A DNA stretch of 64,000 nt from Capsulimonadaceae bacterium (GTDB taxonomy: Bacteria; Armatimonadota; Armatimonadia; Armatimonadales; Capsulimonadaceae), in assembly GCA_965215505.1 (NCBI GenBank), contig OZ244065.1, positions 4,288,001 to 4,352,000 on the forward strand, read 5' to 3'. Each line of letters opens with the position of its first letter. The stretch's first letter is position 1. Position numbers and translations under genes: made by a program. The notes under the pieces were generated by a model. It had not been told where the DNA came from. It worked only from the letters and a program-made list of their open reading frames with translations, and did not search any database. Shown piece by piece: positions 51,433 through 59,941 of the stretch.

Positions 51433-52986
51433 ATGCCCGCCGGGCCACTGATCGGAATTGATATCGGGTCGCAGCAGATCAAGATCGCCGAGTTGCGCCC
51501 CGGCAAGACCGGGCTGACCGTCACCGCCCTCGGCCTCGGGCCGACTCCGGCCGGCGTCGTCCAGAACAGCATCATCACCGACCCCGCCGCCATGGGGGCC
51601 GCCATCAAGAGCCTCATGCGCGAGAGCGGCATCACCATCAAGCGCGCCGTCGGCTGCATCACCGGCCAGAACGCCGTCGTCATCCGCATCATCGAAGTCC
51701 CGCGTATGACCGACGCCGAGCTGAAAGAAACCATGAAGTGGGAGGTCGAGCGGCACGTCCCGTTCGCGCCCTCCGAGACCGTCCTGGACTACCAGCCGCT
51801 CGTCCCGCGCACGGCTGAGGCCGCCAGTGGCCCCAACATGGAGGTGCTGCTCGCCGTCGCACAGCAGGACGCCGTTTCCAACTACATTGACACCCTGTTC
51901 GCGGCGGGCCTCGACCCCGTCGCCATTGACATCGAGCCGCTGGCGATCTCGCGGGCCATCCTGGACCTCCAGAACGGCGTCCCCGTCGCCCGGCCCCAGG
52001 TGCCGTTCGGTGAGCCGGCCTTCGCCGACGGCCCCGAAGAGACGGTCGCCATCGTCAACATCGGTGCGGCCAACACCGACATCGCCATCTTCCAGGGCGG
52101 CCAGCTCACCTTCCCCCGCTCCCTGCCCCTCGCCGGGGACAGCCTGACGCGCGCCATCGCCGAGGCGATGCAGTACACCATGGAACAGGCCGAGCGCGTC
52201 AAGCGCGACTACGCCGTCGTCCAGCTCGACCGCATGGCCGTTTACACCGGCACCGCCTACGAGGAGGGCTACGAGACGCCGCAGTTCCAGGATGAGGACA
52301 ACTTCAATCTCGGCGACGACAACCCGTTCGACCTCGGCGGGCAGAGCGCCGAATTCGGCAACGCCTTCGGCACCCCCTTCGGCGGAGCCTCCGATGCGCC
52401 CCTCGGCGGCACCGCCTTCGGCGGCGGTCCTGCCTTCGACGACCAGGAGCGGACTCAGCCCATCGAGCGGCGCACGCTCAATCTCGCCCGGCCCGCGACC
52501 TCCGACGCGCCCCCCGCCTTCATGCCGCCCACCGACGATGCCGGGTTTGGGATGGCGGGTGCGGGCGGCGGCCCGGACGAGTCCAAGCTGCGTGACGACA
52601 TCTTCGAAGCCATCGCGCCCGTCCTGGGCGAGCTGGCCTCCGAGATCCGGCGCTCCTTCGACTACTACCGCAGCCGGGGCGCGCAGGTGTCCATTGACCG
52701 TGTGCTGCTGACCGGCGGCAGTGCTGGCCTGGCGAACCTCGCCGCCTTCCTCCAGAACGAGCTGCAAGCGCCGGTCGCCGTCGCCAGCGCGCTCACCGCC
52801 CTCCCGGTCACGTCCAAGCACTTCGACCCGTCCTACCTGCCGACCATCGGACCCGCCTTCACCATCGCCGTCGGCCTGGCCGCGCGGGACGTCGTCTTCG
52901 GCGCGAACCCGATGCCCAAGAAGCCCAAGCCGGTCAAGGCGGCCAAAGTGGCTGCCGGATCGGTCACGGCCCCCCCGGCTTCCTAA
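51433..52986 (+). CDS. pilM: Type IV pilus assembly protein PilM
   Basis: IGIDIGS, VNIGA, EIRRSFDYY, LTGGSA, AVGLAAR; about 110-aa acidic insert. Confidence 0.9.
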   Translation: MPAGPLIGIDIGSQQIKIAELRPGKTGLTVTALGLGPTPAGVVQNSIITDPAAMGAAIKSLMRESGITIKRAVGCITGQNAVVIRIIEVPRMTDAELKETMKWEVERHVPFAPSETVLDYQPLVPRTAEAASGPNMEVLLAVAQQDAVSNYIDTLFAAGLDPVAIDIEPLAISRAILDLQNGVPVARPQVPFGEPAFADGPEETVAIVNIGAANTDIAIFQGGQLTFPRSLPLAGDSLTRAIAEAMQYTMEQAERVKRDYAVVQLDRMAVYTGTAYEEGYETPQFQDEDNFNLGDDNPFDLGGQSAEFGNAFGTPFGGASDAPLGGTAFGGGPAFDDQERTQPIERRTLNLARPATSDAPPAFMPPTDDAGFGMAGAGGGPDESKLRDDIFEAIAPVLGELASEIRRSFDYYRSRGAQVSIDRVLLTGGSAGLANLAAFLQNELQAPVAVASALTALPVTSKHFDPSYLPTIGPAFTIAVGLAARDVVFGANPMPKKPKPVKAAKVAAGSVTAPPAS

Positions 52987-53049: not shown

Positions 53050-54204
53050 ATGCTCCGAATCAACCTGCTGCCCCCCTATGTGACGCAGAGGCGTCTTACC
53101 AAGCGCCTCATACCGGTGTTCGCCCTGCTGCTGCTGGCGTGCATCGCTCTGCCCCTCTTCCTGTATGCCAACATGAAGGCGCACCTGAACGACATAACGC
53201 AGCAGGCGGAGGCGGACGAGACGGCCAAGGCCGCCAATGACGCCCTGGATGCCCAAGCCGCCAGCACGACGGCGAAAGTGCAGCCCATCCTGGACAAAGT
53301 GAACTTCGTTGACGGGGTCCACAAGTACAACCGTGACCAGGTCACCACGCTCGTCGCCGTCGCGAACCAAAGCCCCAAGAAGAGCTTCATCTACAGCGGC
53401 ATGGCCCCCGGCGCGGGCTACTCGACCATGACCATCAACGCCTACTCGCCCAGCGTCGAGGAAGCCGGCCGCTACCTCGAGGCGATGTACCAGCAGCCCG
53501 CCTTCACCTCGGTCGCCGTGGACAAGATCCCCGGCTACCCCGACAATGTCCAGCACCGGTGGTATCTCGGCCCGATCAAGCCTCAGTACATGGTGTTCGC
53601 CGACGGCGCTTCGGCGTCCGGCGGCGGTGCCGCCGCCGGCGGCTATCCCGGTGGCGGCGGCGGCGCTGCCACCGCCACGGCGGGCGGCTTCAATGCAGCC
53701 AGCCTCGCTCTGAACGGACCCAACAATATCCCGCCCGGCGTCGGCCCGCCCCCGCCTGAGCTGATCGGCGGCCTCGCCACGGGCGGCGGTGCCGCAAGCG
53801 GCGGCTATCCCGGCAGCGGCGGTGGCGGCGGTTACCCCGGCGGTGGGGGCGGAGCGCAGGCCGGTGGCGGCGGCTACAGCCCGAACTTCCTGCGAATCGC
53901 CCTGGCCGGCGTCAGCCCCTTCGCCACCCCTGACGTGATCGCGCGCATTCTGAGGAACAAGATGCGTCAGGTCCACATGGTGACCATCCCCAAGGGCTTC
54001 AACGTCACCGTGACGGCGGGCATCAACAAGCCTTACGCCCCGCTGACCGCACCGACGCCCCCCGGCGGCGGACCGGCGGCGGGCGGTGCGCCGGGCGGCT
54101 TCGGCGGCGGTGCAGGCGCTTACCCCGGCGGCGGCGGTGCGCCCGGCGGCTACCCCGGTGGGGGTGCCCCCGGCGGCTATCCCGGAGGCGCGGCGTCAGG
54201 CTGA
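53050..54204 (+). CDS. pilN: PilN-like protein with GYPG-rich tracts
   Basis: RINLLP PilM-binding motif, TM, coiled coil; follows pilM. Confidence 0.75.
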   Translation: MLRINLLPPYVTQRRLTKRLIPVFALLLLACIALPLFLYANMKAHLNDITQQAEADETAKAANDALDAQAASTTAKVQPILDKVNFVDGVHKYNRDQVTTLVAVANQSPKKSFIYSGMAPGAGYSTMTINAYSPSVEEAGRYLEAMYQQPAFTSVAVDKIPGYPDNVQHRWYLGPIKPQYMVFADGASASGGGAAAGGYPGGGGGAATATAGGFNAASLALNGPNNIPPGVGPPPPELIGGLATGGGAASGGYPGSGGGGGYPGGGGGAQAGGGGYSPNFLRIALAGVSPFATPDVIARILRNKMRQVHMVTIPKGFNVTVTAGINKPYAPLTAPTPPGGGPAAGGAPGGFGGGAGAYPGGGGAPGGYPGGGAPGGYPGGAASG

Positions 54205-54220
54205 CGCTCAAGGAGACCCA

Positions 54221-55054
54221 ATGAAAACAGCGCGCCTCAGTCCCGTCGTCGTCGCCGCCGTCGGCACTGTACTATCCCTCCTGGCGATCGCCCTGATCTT
54301 CTTCCTGATGATCAAGCCGACGCAGGACGACACCGTGACCCAGCAGGCACGTCTTGACGCCGCCGCCCCCGGCACCGACCCGGAAGATCGGGAAGCAGGG
54401 CTTGCCCGGAACAAGAAGACGGCCCAGGCCAAACTCGCCCAGGCCAAGGTCAATGTGCAGAAAACGCAGATGCAGTGGGCACAGGTCGAAGCCGCAATCA
54501 TGCCTCCGTTCGACGTGAGCAACCGCCGCAAAGCGTTCCGGCAGCTCACCTATGAGCTGACGCACAACCTCGCGCCCGATCTACAGAAGCAGCTCACGGC
54601 CGGGGGCGTCACCTCGTCCACGAGGTTCGCACTGCCGCCGCCGCCCACCAGTCCGAACGACCCGATGATCCGGCCCGGCGTGATCGAGATCCCGCTCGGC
54701 ACGGTCACCGTCAACGGCGACTTCCGGCACATCCTGGCGAACTTCAACGACTGGCAGTATTTCAACCGCCTGGTCAAAGTAGACGGCCTGACCTTGACGG
54801 GCAACAGCCCGTACATGCAGGGGAGCTACACCGCGACGCTGTACATCTTCCCACAGGGTGACACCAATCCCGAGCCGCCCCTCGCCAAAGCGGGCGGGGC
54901 CGGCGGAGCCGGCGCACCCGGTGGCGGCGGCAGCTATCCCGGCGGCGGCGGCGGCGGCAGCTATCCCGGCGGCGGAGGCCCCCCCCCCGGTGCTGGAGGC
55001 CCTGGCGGCTACCCCGGCGGCGGTGGCCCCGGAGCCTACCCCGGCGGCCACTGA
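54221..55054 (+). CDS. pilO: PilO-like protein with GYPG tail
   Basis: TM, coiled coil, VNGDFRHIL..F...FNRLVKVDGL ferredoxin-like pattern; third gene of the operon. Confidence 0.7.
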   Translation: MKTARLSPVVVAAVGTVLSLLAIALIFFLMIKPTQDDTVTQQARLDAAAPGTDPEDREAGLARNKKTAQAKLAQAKVNVQKTQMQWAQVEAAIMPPFDVSNRRKAFRQLTYELTHNLAPDLQKQLTAGGVTSSTRFALPPPPTSPNDPMIRPGVIEIPLGTVTVNGDFRHILANFNDWQYFNRLVKVDGLTLTGNSPYMQGSYTATLYIFPQGDTNPEPPLAKAGGAGGAGAPGGGGSYPGGGGGGSYPGGGGPPPGAGGPGGYPGGGGPGAYPGGH

Positions 55055-55174: not shown

Positions 55175-56191
55175 ATGGACTGGTTCAAAGATAAGAAAAA
55201 CCTGCCGATCGTGGTGGCTCTGGCCGTCGTCGTGTTCCTGGGGGCGGGCGGCCTGATCGCCATGGAACTCGGCCTGTTCAACGGCGGCGCGGCGACGCCC
55301 ACGGCCTCCGCCCCGCCCAGCGGCGCGGGCTATCCGGGTGGTCCTGCCGCCGCCCCCGGTCCTGCCGCCTCTCTCGGTGCGGGTGGCTACCCAGGTGCGC
55401 GCCCGGCGGGCCGTCCCACCCGTGGCGCGGCAGCCGCCGCCGCAAAGGCGTCCCGTCCGGCCACCCCCGGCGCGGTGGTCACCGCCGTGAAGGGGCCTGT
55501 CAACCCGATGACCAGCGCGGACCCGTTCGCCCTCCCCGGCCCGCACAAGGCCGTCGCTTCGGCTGGTGGCCCGAACGTCGCCGGCATGCGGCCCCCCCTG
55601 CGGGACACCCTGCCGCCCCTCAACCTGTTCACGCTGCGCCCGCCGACCCCGCAGGTTGCGAGCAGCCTGACCCTCCCCAATGGGGGGGACGAGACGCTGG
55701 CCGGGACCCGCGTTTCCGGCATCGTGACCGCCGCCGACGGCATCTTCGCCGTACTTGACGTCAATGGAAGCTCACAGACCGTCAAGCCGGGTGACTCTCT
55801 GCCCGGCGGCAGCAAAGTCGCCTCGATTCAGTCCACCGGCGTTACCCTGCACACGCCCGAGGGGAACACGATTACCGTGCCCCTGTCTAACGGTCCGCCC
55901 CAGCAGAACCCGCAGCCCGGTTACGGCGGCGGCTTCGGGGGCGGCGGCTATGGCGGTGGATATCCCGGTGCCGGCGGCTATGGTGGCGGGTATCCGGGTG
56001 CCGGCGGCTTCGGCGGTGGTGGCGGCTACCCCGGTGGTGGCGGCTTCGGCGGCGGCGGGTATCCGGGTGCCGGCGGCTTCGGCGGCGGCGGTGGCTTCGG
56101 CGGCGGTGGCGGCTACCCCGGTGGTGGCGGCTTCGGCGGCGGTGGCGGCGGTTACCCCGGCGGCGGTGGGGGAGCGGGTGCGCCCGAGTAG
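55175..56191 (+). CDS. PilP/GspC-like membrane-anchored protein with GYPG/GF tail
   Basis: TM, ADPF motif, RVSGIV...AVL...VKPGD...VASIQ beta-domain; fourth gene of the operon. Confidence 0.6.
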   Translation: MDWFKDKKNLPIVVALAVVVFLGAGGLIAMELGLFNGGAATPTASAPPSGAGYPGGPAAAPGPAASLGAGGYPGARPAGRPTRGAAAAAAKASRPATPGAVVTAVKGPVNPMTSADPFALPGPHKAVASAGGPNVAGMRPPLRDTLPPLNLFTLRPPTPQVASSLTLPNGGDETLAGTRVSGIVTAADGIFAVLDVNGSSQTVKPGDSLPGGSKVASIQSTGVTLHTPEGNTITVPLSNGPPQQNPQPGYGGGFGGGGYGGGYPGAGGYGGGYPGAGGFGGGGGYPGGGGFGGGGYPGAGGFGGGGGFGGGGGYPGGGGFGGGGGGYPGGGGGAGAPE

Positions 56192-56204: not shown

Positions 56205-56957
56205 ATGAACAGGTCTATTTTCTCTCTCCTCGTTCCCGTCCTTCTGGCTGGGGGCGGCCTGGCGGCACGGGCACAGACCGGGGCAGATTCCAAGCCGGTC
56301 ACGCTCAACGTCTCGCAGGTCCCCATACAGACGGTCCTGAAGACGCTTTTCAACGGCGCTGGCGTCCGCAGCTTCGTGATAGACGCGGACGTCCCGCGCA
56401 CGGCACTCGTCGGCTCGATCAGCCTGAGCGGCGTTCCGTTCTCGGTCGCGCTCAAGCAGGTCCTGGGGGCGGTCAGCCCGCCCTTGGTCGCCGAACTCCA
56501 GGACGGCATTTACCACGTCCGAACTAGTGCGTCCGCGCCGCCGGACTTTGGGCCGCAGGCTGGTTTTCCCCCGGCCGATGCCGGACAGAACAACATCTAC
56601 AAGATTCGCATCAGGCACTATGATGCGGGCATGATTGCGGACGCCCTGACCCGCCGCGGAGGCATCATCCAGCTGCCGCCGAACTTCGTCATTCCGTCGA
56701 GCGCGAGCGTGGCGGGTGGGCCGACCGGCCCGAACATAACGACGGTGGGCGCGGCGGCCGGCCAGCCCCCGGCGGCTCCAAACGGCGGCGGGCTTCAGAA
56801 CGGCACGGCGACCGGCGCGAACGTCCTGCCGCCCGGCGTCAAGCGCATCTTCATCCTCGCGAGTGACAACTCTCTGGTGGTCGAGGCCACCGCCCAGGGC
56901 TACGAAAACCTGACCGACGAGCGCCTGCTCTCCGGCGGGTACACGCCAGTCTATTAA
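56205..56957 (+). CDS. Secreted secretin N-terminal-module protein (N0 + N3-like, no barrel)
   Basis: Signal peptide, KPVTLNVSQVPIQTVL; LPPGVKRIFILASDNSLVVEAT matches secretin LPDGVTRIFALQSNNSLLVQAT. Confidence 0.7.
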   Translation: MNRSIFSLLVPVLLAGGGLAARAQTGADSKPVTLNVSQVPIQTVLKTLFNGAGVRSFVIDADVPRTALVGSISLSGVPFSVALKQVLGAVSPPLVAELQDGIYHVRTSASAPPDFGPQAGFPPADAGQNNIYKIRIRHYDAGMIADALTRRGGIIQLPPNFVIPSSASVAGGPTGPNITTVGAAAGQPPAAPNGGGLQNGTATGANVLPPGVKRIFILASDNSLVVEATAQGYENLTDERLLSGGYTPVY

Positions 56958-57000: not shown

Positions 57001-57816
57001 ATGAAAATCCGATACACGCGACGTCATGCGGCCCTCGCCCTTGGTGCCCTGGCCCTGCTCGGCGGCTCGGTCGTGGCCACCCCCGCACGGGCGCAGGACG
57101 CCAGCGCGGCGTCCGACAAGCCCATCACGCTGAACCTCCAGAACGTCCCCATCCAGACCGCCCTGAAGCTGCTGTTCAACGCTGCGGGCATCCACAACTA
57201 CACCATCGCTTCGGACGTACAGGGGACCGCCAACATTAACAGCGCCAATGTTCCCTTTACGATCGCCCTGACTAACCTGCTGAACTCGGTCGGCGCGGCC
57301 TTCACCGTCGAGAACGGCAGCTACAACGTCGCCATCAAGCGGCCCACGCCGGCACCCCCCGTGGTCGTCACCCCGCAGCCGAACGGGAACACGATCGTGG
57401 GCGGCAGCCAGGACTCGACGGCCAGCACGGCGGATCAGCCCAAGCGCTTCTACCCGATTCCGGTCAACAAGTACGACGCCTACTACCTTGCCCTCCTGCT
57501 CGGCTCGCAGGGCCTCGTCCGCGTTGACGTCAACGGCATCCTGCCCTCCCAGTTCAGCCAGGCCACCGGGCAGGGCCAGGGCGGTCAGGGCGGCCCCGCC
57601 GGCGGCATCACCTCGGTCGGTGGCCAGGGCGGTCGCGGCGGCGGCTTCGGCGGCGGTGGCGGCTACGGCGGTGGCGGCGGCGGCTTCGGCAGCGGCGGCG
57701 GTGCCCGCGGCAGCGTCGGCGGCGGCGGCGGCGGCTTCGGCGGCTTTGCCATCATCAACCCCGCCGGTTCGCAGAACACAAGCCCGCAGGGCACGCCCCC
57801 CCAGGGCACGAACTAA
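57001..57816 (+). CDS. Second secreted secretin N-terminal-module protein with Gly-rich tail
   Basis: Signal peptide, KPITLNLQNVPIQTAL, VPFTIAL; paralogous to 56205-56957. Confidence 0.7.
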   Translation: MKIRYTRRHAALALGALALLGGSVVATPARAQDASAASDKPITLNLQNVPIQTALKLLFNAAGIHNYTIASDVQGTANINSANVPFTIALTNLLNSVGAAFTVENGSYNVAIKRPTPAPPVVVTPQPNGNTIVGGSQDSTASTADQPKRFYPIPVNKYDAYYLALLLGSQGLVRVDVNGILPSQFSQATGQGQGGQGGPAGGITSVGGQGGRGGGFGGGGGYGGGGGGFGSGGGARGSVGGGGGGFGGFAIINPAGSQNTSPQGTPPQGTN

Positions 57817-58006: not shown

Positions 58007-59941
58007 ATGGGTTTATATCGAAGACGATCGGGCTTAACCGCCGCGTGCGGCCTGCTGGCTCTGGCGGGGCTGGCGTCCGCCGCCGCCCCGGCCCGGAGCG
58101 CCGAGGACGCCCCCCCCACGGCGAACGGCCGTGGGATCAGCATGGACGTGGCCGGTGCCGACATGCACACAGTCGTCCACATGCTGGAGCAGCAGGCCCA
58201 TGTGGATGCCCTCGTCCATGATGGCGACAAGCCGTTCAAGCCCATCAATCTCCATCTGGATGAGGCGTCCCTGCCGAAAGCGCTGAGGACCATCGCGGCC
58301 AGTGCGGGCGCGAAAGTCAGCAAGAATGAGGACGGGGTCTACGTCTTCGAGCCTCTCACCGCCGACAGTCCGGCCGCCCCGGCAAGCCCTGCACCCGCCG
58401 TCCAGGCCCCCGCCGCGCCGCAGCAACCCGCCGACAACCGCCCCGAGGCGCGCTACCCGTCTGGGTCGCTGCACTGGCAGTCCATCGTCCTCCAGCATGC
58501 CGTCCCGAATGACATCCTGAGGATCATGCACTGGGACCAGGACCTCGTCGAACTCGACCCCTTCAAGCCCGTCGAGGCCCCCCAGCAGCGCCCCAACGTG
58601 TCCTCATTCGGCGCGAACACGATTCTCCCGTCCAGCCTCGCCGGTCTCGGCGGCAACGGCTTCCCGAACAACAACTACAATAACGGCGGCTACCAGAACG
58701 GTGGCTATAACAACGGCGGCTACCAGAATGGCGGCAACCCGTCCGTGCCGCTCGGCACCGGCAATGGTGGTCCCGCCGGCGCGAACTACGCGAACTCCGC
58801 CCACCGCAGCGCTGAACCCGGCTCCCCCGGCCAGGCCAACCAGTTCCCCGGCGGCGGCTTCGGCGGCGGCTTCGGCGGCGGCCAGTTCGGGGGTGGCGGC
58901 GGCCAGTTCGGCGGCGGCGGCCAGTTCGGGGGTGGCGGCGGCCAGTTCGGCGGCGGCGGTCAGTTCGGCGGCGGCGGTCAGTTCGGGGGTGGCGGCGGCC
59001 AGTTCGGCGGCGGCCAGTTCGGCGGCCAGGGTGGGCCGGGCGGGGCGGGCGGACGGGCCCAGCTTCCCGACGGTGTGACGCGCATCTTCGCCCTGCAAAG
59101 CAACAACTCCCTGCTGGTCCAGGCGACCGTGGATGGATACAACACGGTCAAAAACCTGGTCCGCATCCTCGACATCGCCCCGCGCCAGGTCCAGATCAAG
59201 GTCGAGTTCGTCACCGCCAGCGTCGTGGACGTGGATAACCTCGGCGTCAACTTCGACCTCGTGCCCTATCCGGGTCTGGAACTCGCCACGAACCAGGGCA
59301 GCAGCGCCATCAGCACGACGGCCGCGCCGACCTTCCTGCAATACGCCACCGGCAACATCGTCGCCCAGCTTTTCCAGACGCTCACCCGCACGCGCGGCAA
59401 GGTGGTCCAGGCGCCGATCATCACGACGACGAACAACGTGGCGGCCAGCATCAACGTGTTCACCCAGATCCCGTTCTTCACCTCCTCCAGCGTGGTCACG
59501 GGCGGTCTGAACAACAACACGGTTAACAACACGCAGGCCAACTTCATCACCCTCAACACGGGCCTGACGATTGCGCCGCGCATCAACAGCGACGACTCGG
59601 TCACGATGAACCTCTCGCCGACGATCACTGACGTCACCGGCCAGCCCGCCGTCGGCGGCATCCCGCCGACCGTCACCCAGAGCATCACCACCCTCCGCAC
59701 CGTCCGCAGCGGCGACACCATGGTCCTCGGCGGCCTGGTCCGCAAGCAGGAAACGACCTCGACCCAGCGCATCCCGATCCTCGCCGACATCCCGGTCTTG
59801 GGCGGCATCTTCCGCACCCGCAACAAGCAGATCAACGACACCGAGCTGCTGATCTTCGTCACGCCGACCATCATCGGCGACAGCAACGACAGCGCGACCG
59901 CCAATGCCAACGGCGGCCAGAGCGTTACCGTCACGCCGTAA
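58007..59941 (+). CDS. Secretin (PilQ/GspD family)
   Basis: LDIAPRQVQI, LTIAPRIN, VRSGDTMVLGGL, IPILADIPVLGGIFR, ELLIFVTPTII. Confidence 0.92.
   Translation: MGLYRRRSGLTAACGLLALAGLASAAAPARSAEDAPPTANGRGISMDVAGADMHTVVHMLEQQAHVDALVHDGDKPFKPINLHLDEASLPKALRTIAASAGAKVSKNEDGVYVFEPLTADSPAAPASPAPAVQAPAAPQQPADNRPEARYPSGSLHWQSIVLQHAVPNDILRIMHWDQDLVELDPFKPVEAPQQRPNVSSFGANTILPSSLAGLGGNGFPNNNYNNGGYQNGGYNNGGYQNGGNPSVPLGTGNGGPAGANYANSAHRSAEPGSPGQANQFPGGGFGGGFGGGQFGGGGGQFGGGGQFGGGGGQFGGGGQFGGGGQFGGGGGQFGGGQFGGQGGPGGAGGRAQLPDGVTRIFALQSNNSLLVQATVDGYNTVKNLVRILDIAPRQVQIKVEFVTASVVDVDNLGVNFDLVPYPGLELATNQGSSAISTTAAPTFLQYATGNIVAQLFQTLTRTRGKVVQAPIITTTNNVAASINVFTQIPFFTSSSVVTGGLNNNTVNNTQANFITLNTGLTIAPRINSDDSVTMNLSPTITDVTGQPAVGGIPPTVTQSITTLRTVRSGDTMVLGGLVRKQETTSTQRIPILADIPVLGGIFRTRNKQINDTELLIFVTPTIIGDSNDSATANANGGQSVTVTP

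Follow-up and report, generated by a model that had tools for sequence, protein, structure and literature searches.

A pilus secretin of the Armatimonadota carries a long, low-complexity loop inside the N3 domain of its ring. Its gene lies at positions 58007–59941 on the forward strand of the 64,000-nucleotide stretch analysed here (the window; positions 4,288,001 to 4,352,000 of contig OZ244065.1 from a Capsulimonadaceae bacterium) and encodes 644 residues. Between helix α1 and strand β2 of N3, the protein is predicted to have 183 disordered residues that include a 71-residue Gly/Gln/Phe array. Judged from the homologues, the composition of this array is conserved and its exact repeat is not, and arrays of the same kind recur on the periplasmic proteins encoded by the rest of the operon. 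We tentatively propose that the loop is a soft plug or gasket under the secretin gate. The genome is a single contig of 6.18 Mb (66.5% guanine–cytosine (GC) content), and the nearest named relatives are all Armatimonadota (Capsulimonas corticalis CCAX7_33050, Capsulimonadaceae, Chthonomonadales and Fimbriimonadales).

The secretin and its split N3 domain

The protein belongs to the Secretin superfamily. Pfam Secretin (PF00263) matches residues 461–623 (E 2.8e-37; 128.3 bits against a cut-off of 27.5), and the AlphaFold2 model, built on 71 homologues, shows the secretin fold of an N3 ring domain and a double β-barrel. A Foldseek search with the model returned chains of InvG, GspD and PilQ at E ~1e-21. 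VIA alignments gave Z scores of 13–16 over 260–290 aligned residues (root mean square deviation 5.8–8.5), in parts of the model where the predicted local distance difference test score (pLDDT) is 75–96. Secretin and Secretin_N were the only Pfam matches; nucleoporin families were absent from them, and Pfam found no AMIN domains in the protein.

A preliminary description of this DNA had drawn its comparison from type II secretion system secretins. On gene order, the protein is PilQ-type and not of that system. The NCBIfam models for PilQ (TIGR02515; 132 bits against 284.35) and GspD (TIGR02517; 150.6 bits against 351.35) both stay below their cut-offs, so the name PilQ-type rests on the position of the gene at the end of a pilM-N-O-P-like operon, with a PilM_2 match, a PilP match close to its cut-off and two bitopic proteins between them.

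The domain order is as follows. An N0-like domain (58136–58354, residues 44–116; pLDDT 90–96) aligns in VIA with the N0/STN-type domains of 4jtm_A (Z 7.8) and 4ar0 (Z 8.0), and a Pro/Ala-rich linker leads from it to N3. The first half of N3 (58472–58525, residues 156–173; pLDDT ~90) comprises strand β1 (156–161) and helix α1 (167–173). The insert follows (58526–59074, residues 174–356), with pLDDT below 50 over residues 188–348. The second half of N3 (59075–59170, residues 357–388) then supplies strands β2 (357–363) and β3 (368–373) and helix α2 (375–388), and the double-barrel domain (59186–59875, residues 394–623) is recognized by Pfam, AlphaFold2 and Foldseek. All of these segments are read from the forward strand.

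Several lines of evidence locate the insert. Pfam Secretin_N (PF03958) reaches 23.9 bits against a cut-off of 28.2, over residues 336–394, and aligns through profile positions 25–69 of 69 only; the profile matches the second half alone because the insert splits N3. The model and the VIA alignments support a complete but divided β-α-β-β-α domain. VIA alignments to chains that start at N3 begin at model residues 151–156; for example, model residues 153–635 align onto residues 176–530 of 6dv6_A (InvG 176 to the end). The phmmer register places query residue 355 at InvG 264 and query residue 364 at PulD 313. As modelled, the insert thus sits between helix α1 and strand β2 of N3, at the known variable-loop site of secretins (InvG 217–267, PulD 288–303), and AlphaFold2, VIA and phmmer agree on a disordered insertion of the InvG 217–267 type. 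The long insert that the preliminary description had placed between two N3-like halves is borne out by the Secretin_N match, the model topology and the structural alignments. A frame or assembly artefact was considered and rejected: the reading frame is continuous, and the insert is common to homologues from many independent assemblies.

The insert (68 Gly, 17 Gln, 17 Asn, 14 Phe and 14 Pro in 183 residues) is made of three parts. A variable Asn/Gly/Tyr stretch comes first (58676–58735, residues 224–243), reading YNNGGYQNGGYNNGGYQNGG; it is a tandem repeat of period 15 in 3.9 copies and differs among homologues. It is followed by a conserved linear motif of the form PSVP...RS...QANQFP (58739–58849, residues 245–281), which was identified from the homologue alignment and reads PSVPLGTGNGGPAGANYANSAHRSAEPGSPGQANQFP. 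The third part is the uncharged Gly/Gln/Phe array (58850–59062, residues 282–352), whose 71 residues include 47 Gly, 10 Phe and 10 Gln, with one Arg and no Asp, Glu or Lys. Positions 58655–59050 (residues 217–348) contain NGGYQNGGYNNGGYQNGG and read NGFPNNNYNNGGYQNGGYNNGGYQNGGNPSVPLGTGNGG...QANQFPGGGFGGGFGGGQFGGGGGQFGGGGQFGGGGGQFGGGGQFGGGGQFGGGGGQFGGGQFGGQGGPGGAG. The preliminary count for this segment was exact: there are 10 FG dipeptides, 8 of them QFG, all within residues 285–338. With these 10 dipeptides, one charged residue in 71 and pLDDT below 50, the array is of the repeated-FG, low-charge, disordered kind. At the DNA level it is an imperfect tandem repeat, with a period of 57 (2.7 copies, 89% matches) and a period of 18 (8.2 copies, 80% matches). 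A feature search of the ESM Atlas with residues 217–352 gave no usable match.

Conservation of composition

All 71 of the aligned homologues (31–81% identity) have an insert at the same site. It measures 86–173 residues between alignment anchors, with a median of 128 residues and 36 Gly. Both prolines of PSVP (P245 and P248) hardly vary: they are found in at least 90% of the 71 sequences. The longer pattern PSVP..G.GN..AN..RS..P..QA.QFP aligns through the closer homologues, and the distant ones keep P.VP and QF[GP]GG.

The homologous arrays are 22–75 residues long (interquartile range 49–61) and are strongly biased in composition. Their 3852 residues are 55% Gly, 11.3% Gln, 9.5% Phe, 5.7% Pro and 5.5% Asn. 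Asp and Glu together account for 0.3%, against 10.8% in the background of the genome's long open reading frames (ORFs). Phe is enriched 3.5-fold, and Ala, Val and Leu are depleted to 0.35, 0.09 and 0.21 times the background. Phe, Asn and Gln are encoded by AT-rich codons, in a genome of the high GC content given above. At least four bulky hydrophobic residues are found in 70 of the 71 arrays, at a median spacing of six residues and with a median of one charged residue.

The FG dipeptide behaves differently from the composition. Its count ranges from 0 to 11 among the homologues; 38 of the 71 have at least three and 12 have none. The residue after Phe (n=365) is Gly in 215 cases and Asn, Gln or Pro in 132. 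The repeat unit varies freely, from QFGGGG in this protein to GFNGGG, NPFGGGG, GFPGGG, GGLGGG, GGMGGG and GGYGG in its relatives. Judged from these alignments, what is conserved is not the FG dipeptide but a compositional property: a bulky hydrophobic residue (Phe, or Leu, Met, Ile or Tyr) about every six residues, in a Gly/Gln/Asn matrix with almost no acidic residues.

The same bias follows the phylum. As a mark for scoring loci we took at least 25 Gly within a 60-residue window of the secretin. It is reached at 26 of the 36 loci titled as Armatimonadota lineages, at three of eight untitled loci and at one of 34 loci from other phyla. Loci of the PVC group in this set, which may encode other kinds of secretin, had no such array. 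Three classes of the phylum retain the array, in genomes of 49–66% GC. In a wider family sample (the best 150 representatives at 50% identity, 131 of which have at least 450 residues), 91 of the 131 reach the Gly mark, 89 also have at least four bulky hydrophobics, and 50 have at least three Phe in the Gly window. By these sequence counts the array is common in the family, not universal. It is not a chance product.

A GC-driven artefact was also examined as an explanation and rejected, as control secretin loci at 64–71% GC lack arrays and Armatimonadota loci at 49–52% GC have them.

Two proteobacterial secretin ORFs have Gly-rich tracts of their own. The sole locus of another phylum at the mark, from Methylococcaceae (L044), is Gly/Ser-rich, with 27 Gly in 60 residues, and an Azoarcus locus (L043) has a Gly/Arg/Ala/Pro-rich tract with 17 Gly in 60 residues. 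If these tracts lie in the N3 loop, Gly-rich loops would not be confined to Armatimonadota; the uncharged type with Phe was observed in that phylum alone.

Arrays across the operon and the genome

The secretin is not the only array-bearing protein of its machine. We scanned the whole genome in six frames for ORFs in which a stretch of 40 residues holds 20 or more Gly and four or more Phe, Tyr or Trp. Fifteen ORFs pass, and five of them fall in this 5-kb operon: the PilN-, PilO- and PilP-like proteins, the protein encoded at 57001–57816 and the secretin. The remaining ten are mostly signal-peptide proteins, together with one cytoplasmic RRM protein and one seemingly spurious frame. Of six secretin-domain ORFs in the genome, this is the one with such an array.

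The operon runs on the forward strand. It starts with pilM (51433–52986; Pfam PilM_2, E 1.3e-50). The next two genes encode membrane proteins that are predicted to be bitopic and are named from gene order only: a PilN-position protein with two Gly/Tyr/Pro tracts, one of them internal and the other C-terminal (53050–54204), and a PilO-position protein with a GGSYPGGGG... tail (54218–55054). Their tracts were recognized from sequence and in the genome scan. The PilP-like protein (55175–56191) just misses the TIGR03021 pilP_fam cut-off (E 3.6e-7; 31.2 bits against 34.65) and has a C-terminal tail of 90 residues, GYGGGFGGGGYGGGYPGAGG... Pfam gave no family above threshold for these three proteins. 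All three bear tracts of the GGYPGGGG or GGFGGGG type, and in the PilN- and PilP-like proteins internal Gly-rich tracts lie between the membrane anchor and the domain.

Two small secreted N0/STN-like proteins are encoded between the PilP-like gene and the secretin, the last gene of the operon. The protein at 56205–56957 combines an N0-like domain, which gives a weak Pfam STN match, with a split N3-like domain, and it lacks a barrel; it is 55% identical over 31 residues to β2-β3-α2 of the secretin (E 2e-7) and ends shortly after. The protein at 57001–57816, likewise small and secreted, is paralogous to the front end of the secretin and gives weak STN and PilQ/HofQ N-terminal matches. An alignment of 28 members of its family shows a signal peptide, an N0/STN-like domain, a strand–helix stub resembling β1-α1 and a Gly/aromatic C-terminal tail. 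From its sequence, it looks like a secretin front end truncated inside the array.

The family of this 57001–57816 gene, adjoining the secretin on its 5′ side, is the constant carrier of the array, present at 27 of the 27 loci examined. A same-strand Gly-rich ORF lies upstream of the secretin at all of these Armatimonadota-type loci (22 titled, five untitled), which are those with enough upstream DNA, against 3 of 26 controls. The pattern is independent of GC content (0.49–0.66 in the Armatimonadota-type loci against 0.37–0.71 in the controls). The small upstream protein is kept even at loci where the secretin is without an array (L005–L008, L011 and L033). A complex prediction of secretin residues 40–400 with residues 30–200 of this protein scored 0.00 against a mark of 0.32, which is no evidence either way. 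At another Capsulimonadaceae locus (L004), ORF spacing suggests a single small protein upstream of the secretin.

Downstream of the secretin lie aroC, a DUF4241 gene, aroK and aroB. The segment 61292–62258, between aroC and aroK, breaks the run of shikimate genes with a 92-residue ORF and the DUF4241 gene (E 9.2e-37). T2SSE ATPases have 18 matches in the genome, none of them within the window.

Elsewhere in the genome, a T2SS-like secretin paralogue of 912 residues (forward strand, genome positions ~4849785–4850270, outside the window) has a (GGMP)n linker that joins N0 to the N domain after it, as well as an uncharged loop of ~90 residues, rich in Asn, Gly, Ser and Gln, at the N3 α1-β2 site. 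Unrelated signal-peptide proteins with GGYPGGGGG, GGFPGGGG or GGFGGPGG arrays are encoded at genome positions 2056880–2057701, 4784857–4786344, 4896620–4897657, 3410299–3411816 and 605956–607626; Pfam gave no family for the one that we tested. Gly/aromatic low-complexity tracts seem to be a general trait of this organism's extracytoplasmic proteins.

Function of the loop and comparison with known systems

Loops at this site in other secretins are disordered, as the preliminary description had supposed: InvG residues 228–251 are disordered (PMC6155069) and PulD residues 288–303 were not built (PMC6882859). Its further premise, that N3 loops face the channel, holds conditionally. The InvG report proposes that the loop forms the periplasmic constriction of the closed, empty channel; with the needle in place, the same report describes the loop as leaving the lumen and passing outward between N3 and N1 (PMC6155069). 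For PulD, N3 domain constriction sites in the channel are described (PMC6882859), and for XcpQ, N-domain constrictions (PMC5646246).

By analogy, we read the loop as a soft plug or gasket, tethered and cohesive, that would sit below the gate; we hold this proposal to be plausible and put it forward tentatively. Our reasons are that its site is that of the InvG loop, that its composition appears selected and that the SlkA and SlkB proteins offer a precedent for a plug. Both ends of the secretin array are fixed in a single domain and the tails of its neighbours are free, so that neither can transmit force between domains and they must act by bulk or by binding. On the same ground, that both ends lie in one domain, a load-bearing linker role for the secretin array was rejected. 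In the proposed mechanism, the 12–15 loops of a channel, together with the tails of the neighbouring proteins, would form a polymer brush or mesh, tethered, weakly cohesive and deformable, within the vestibule or conduit on the periplasmic side. The mesh would seal the leaky secretin when the pilus is absent. During pilus passage it would be pushed aside or serve as a gasket, with physics akin to those of cohesive FG domains. Our own arithmetic gives ~82 kDa for fourteen 71-residue arrays, which at 300 mg/ml would fill a column 7.5 nm wide and ~10 nm tall and would fit the vestibule.

Several observations weigh against a plug. Fourteen whole inserts amount to ~230 kDa and, at the same gel-like 300 mg/ml, need a column of ~29 nm, which exceeds the vestibule; part of the insert must therefore lie elsewhere. 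The InvG report places the ordered parts of its loop outside the lumen when a filament is present (PMC6155069). Only the Pro/Ala-rich linker separates N3 from N0 in our protein, and the loop could exit freely. The array is also an evolving tandem repeat. It is absent or weak at 10 of the 36 titled Armatimonadota loci (two of them with truncated ORFs), and 40 of the 131 family representatives miss the Gly mark. Finally, similar arrays occur on unrelated signal-peptide proteins of the genome, which speaks for a trait of the envelope at large and not of the channel in particular.

The main rival to a plug is a peripheral cohesive scaffold, which we consider rather doubtful. Here the loops would pass out beneath the N3 ring and lock together with the tails that the PilN/O/P-like proteins and N0 paralogues carry, gluing the outer- and inner-membrane subcomplexes together or embedding the machine in the cell wall, and the lumen would not be filled. 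The presence of arrays on all periplasmic components of the operon argues for such a role, as do the Gly-rich ORFs upstream of the secretin (at all 27 loci, but at 3 of the 26 controls) and the small upstream protein that has its array even where the secretin has none. The conserved PSVP...QANQFP segment looks, from its sequence, like a docking motif. According to two reports, the InvG loop lies outside the lumen and stabilizes N-domain contacts in the assembled state (PMC6155069), and the N0-like protein BfpG binds the periphery of the BfpB N3 ring (PMC12531336). A scaffold accounts less well for the arrays on unrelated secreted proteins, and plain glue has no obvious need for the exclusion of acidic residues or for a bounded array length. 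Alternatively, the array could be a tolerated low-complexity expansion, in which replication slippage in a permissive disordered loop yields flexible filler whose chemistry is irrelevant. The imperfect tandem repeats in the DNA, the different repeat units of close relatives (QFGGGG, GFNGGG, NPFGGGG, GFPGGG), the FG counts of 0–11 and the representatives below the Gly threshold are all in keeping with slippage. So is the known variability of the α1-β2 loop, which is Gly/Thr/Ala-rich in the aligned ExeD structure (6i1x) and may be Gly/Ser-rich in the Methylococcaceae secretin. Yet the composition opposes mutational bias, with Phe, Asn and Gln raised and Ala, Val, Arg, Asp and Glu lowered. The array persists in three classes over the range of 49–66% GC, whereas 33 of the 34 secretin loci from other phyla lack it, including those of 64–71% GC genomes, and it is concentrated in one operon. 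On balance we think a merely tolerated expansion an unlikely explanation.

The preliminary description had likened the FG array to the nuclear pore. What stands of this is a resemblance in composition, the uncharged Gly/Gln/Asn context with Phe being similar to that of cohesive FG domains; the FG motif itself is not conserved. There is no homology to nucleoporins and no evident carrier system that could confer selectivity. A strictly nuclear-pore-like selective barrier, in which cargo or carriers cross by binding Phe, would draw on 10 FG dipeptides in 65 residues, which over 12–15 subunits come to 120–150 per channel, in agreement with the earlier figure of more than 100. Predicted disorder, the uncharged Gly/Gln/Asn surroundings and anchoring to a ring scaffold also suit it. 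It is nevertheless very unlikely: 12 of the 71 homologues have no FG, Phe is often followed by Asn, Gln or Pro, and many relatives use Leu, Met, Ile or Tyr in its place. Moreover, the spacers here are runs of 3–5 Gly, with about one motif per six residues; a rigid pilus fibre as cargo would displace a mesh mechanically; and Pfam detected no nucleoporin family. In a broader form of the idea, Armatimonadota may have independently invented an FG-type cohesive phase, in which some 60–90 tethered Gly/aromatic segments (secretin loops, PilN/O/P-like tails and N0 paralogues) would fill the pilus conduit as a hydrogel-like permeability barrier. The pilus, and perhaps DNA, would penetrate this barrier, a prokaryotic physical analogue of that in the nuclear pore; we judge this speculative and distinctly unlikely. 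A last possibility is an entropic or elastic spacer, with rubber-like Gly-rich segments adapting the machine to the width of the periplasm. Gly-rich arrays with Phe or Met resemble elastomeric repeat proteins, and the PilN- and PilP-like proteins have internal tracts between membrane anchor and domain. The secretin array ends in the same small domain in which it starts, most other arrays are free C-terminal tails, and no load would pass between domains; an elastic role is accordingly highly improbable.

The soft plug that we favour bears on a wider question. Secretins are the widest holes in the outer membrane, and how they are kept tight is an open question that was recently answered for one species by plug proteins acting in trans (PMC13392014). 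A phylum-wide, built-in, low-complexity loop at a constriction-forming site is a concrete candidate for a different sealing solution. Recombinant protein and a cultivated relative, Capsulimonas corticalis, both offer a direct way to test it. The Gly/aromatic segments on every periplasmic machine part point to a role for a disordered, possibly cohesive polymer in a bacterial trans-envelope machine. Should the material prove inert, it would still show strong compositional conservation in a fast-evolving repeat. In the open-access literature, our searches turned up no account of FG repeats or Gly-rich tracts in secretins, PilQ included, and none of a pilus machine from Armatimonadota.

The operon matches the proteobacterial pilMNOPQ cluster in its order of pilM, N, O, P and secretin followed by shikimate genes (aroC, aroK and aroB here), and its secretin has the same N0-N3-secretin architecture. 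Unlike proteobacterial PilQ, the protein falls below the NCBIfam PilQ cut-off and shows no AMIN domain by Pfam, and its operon has two extra N0 paralogue genes and Gly/aromatic arrays throughout. For the two small proteins (56205–56957 and 57001–57816) there is a precedent in BfpG, a small, secreted, N0-like partner encoded with the type IVb secretin BfpB (PMC12531336). BfpG is without a Gly/aromatic tail, whereas the small proteins here look, by sequence, like truncated secretin front ends. The 'N3 barrel' of BfpB was considered as a precedent for the loop and set aside, because it arises at a different site, between β1 and α1.

GLFG-type cohesive FG domains of nucleoporins share with the array a predicted disorder, Phe in an uncharged Gly/Gln/Asn context and many copies tethered around a ring channel. 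They differ in that there is no homology, FG is not conserved here, the arrays are 55% Gly with spacers of 3–5 Gly, and the channel is ~7–8 nm wide. Nucleoporin FG spacers consist of 10–20 polar residues. We know of no transport receptors for a secretin channel.

The closest functional parallel to our candidate plug is in Pseudomonas aeruginosa. Secretin gates leak, and mobile luminal SlkA and SlkB seal PilQ there until the inner-membrane complex docks; Slk proteins are mainly gamma-proteobacterial, and other types of plug are expected in bacteria without them (PMC13392014). By analogy the proposed job is the same: a mobile, displaceable mass under the gate, which would tighten a type IV pilus secretin that leaks until the pilus machinery engages. 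SlkA and SlkB work in trans as periplasmic proteins of their own, whereas the candidate plug here would be part of the secretin itself, in cis, and of a small paralogue; the analogy is functional and no homology is claimed.

The nearest structural parallels remain the variable N3 loops of InvG (217–267), PulD (288–303) and ExeD. They occupy the same α1-β2 site and are disordered or unbuilt, and those of InvG and PulD have been linked to a periplasmic constriction. Unlike them, the loop described here has 183 residues rather than ~16–50, contains a 71-residue array and the PSVP...QANQFP motif, forms a compositional module found throughout the phylum and is matched by like arrays on neighbouring proteins. 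A variable, disordered N3 loop was thus already known in secretins; what is new is its size, its Gly/Gln/Phe chemistry, the phylum-wide conservation of its composition and its recurrence on every periplasmic part of the machine.

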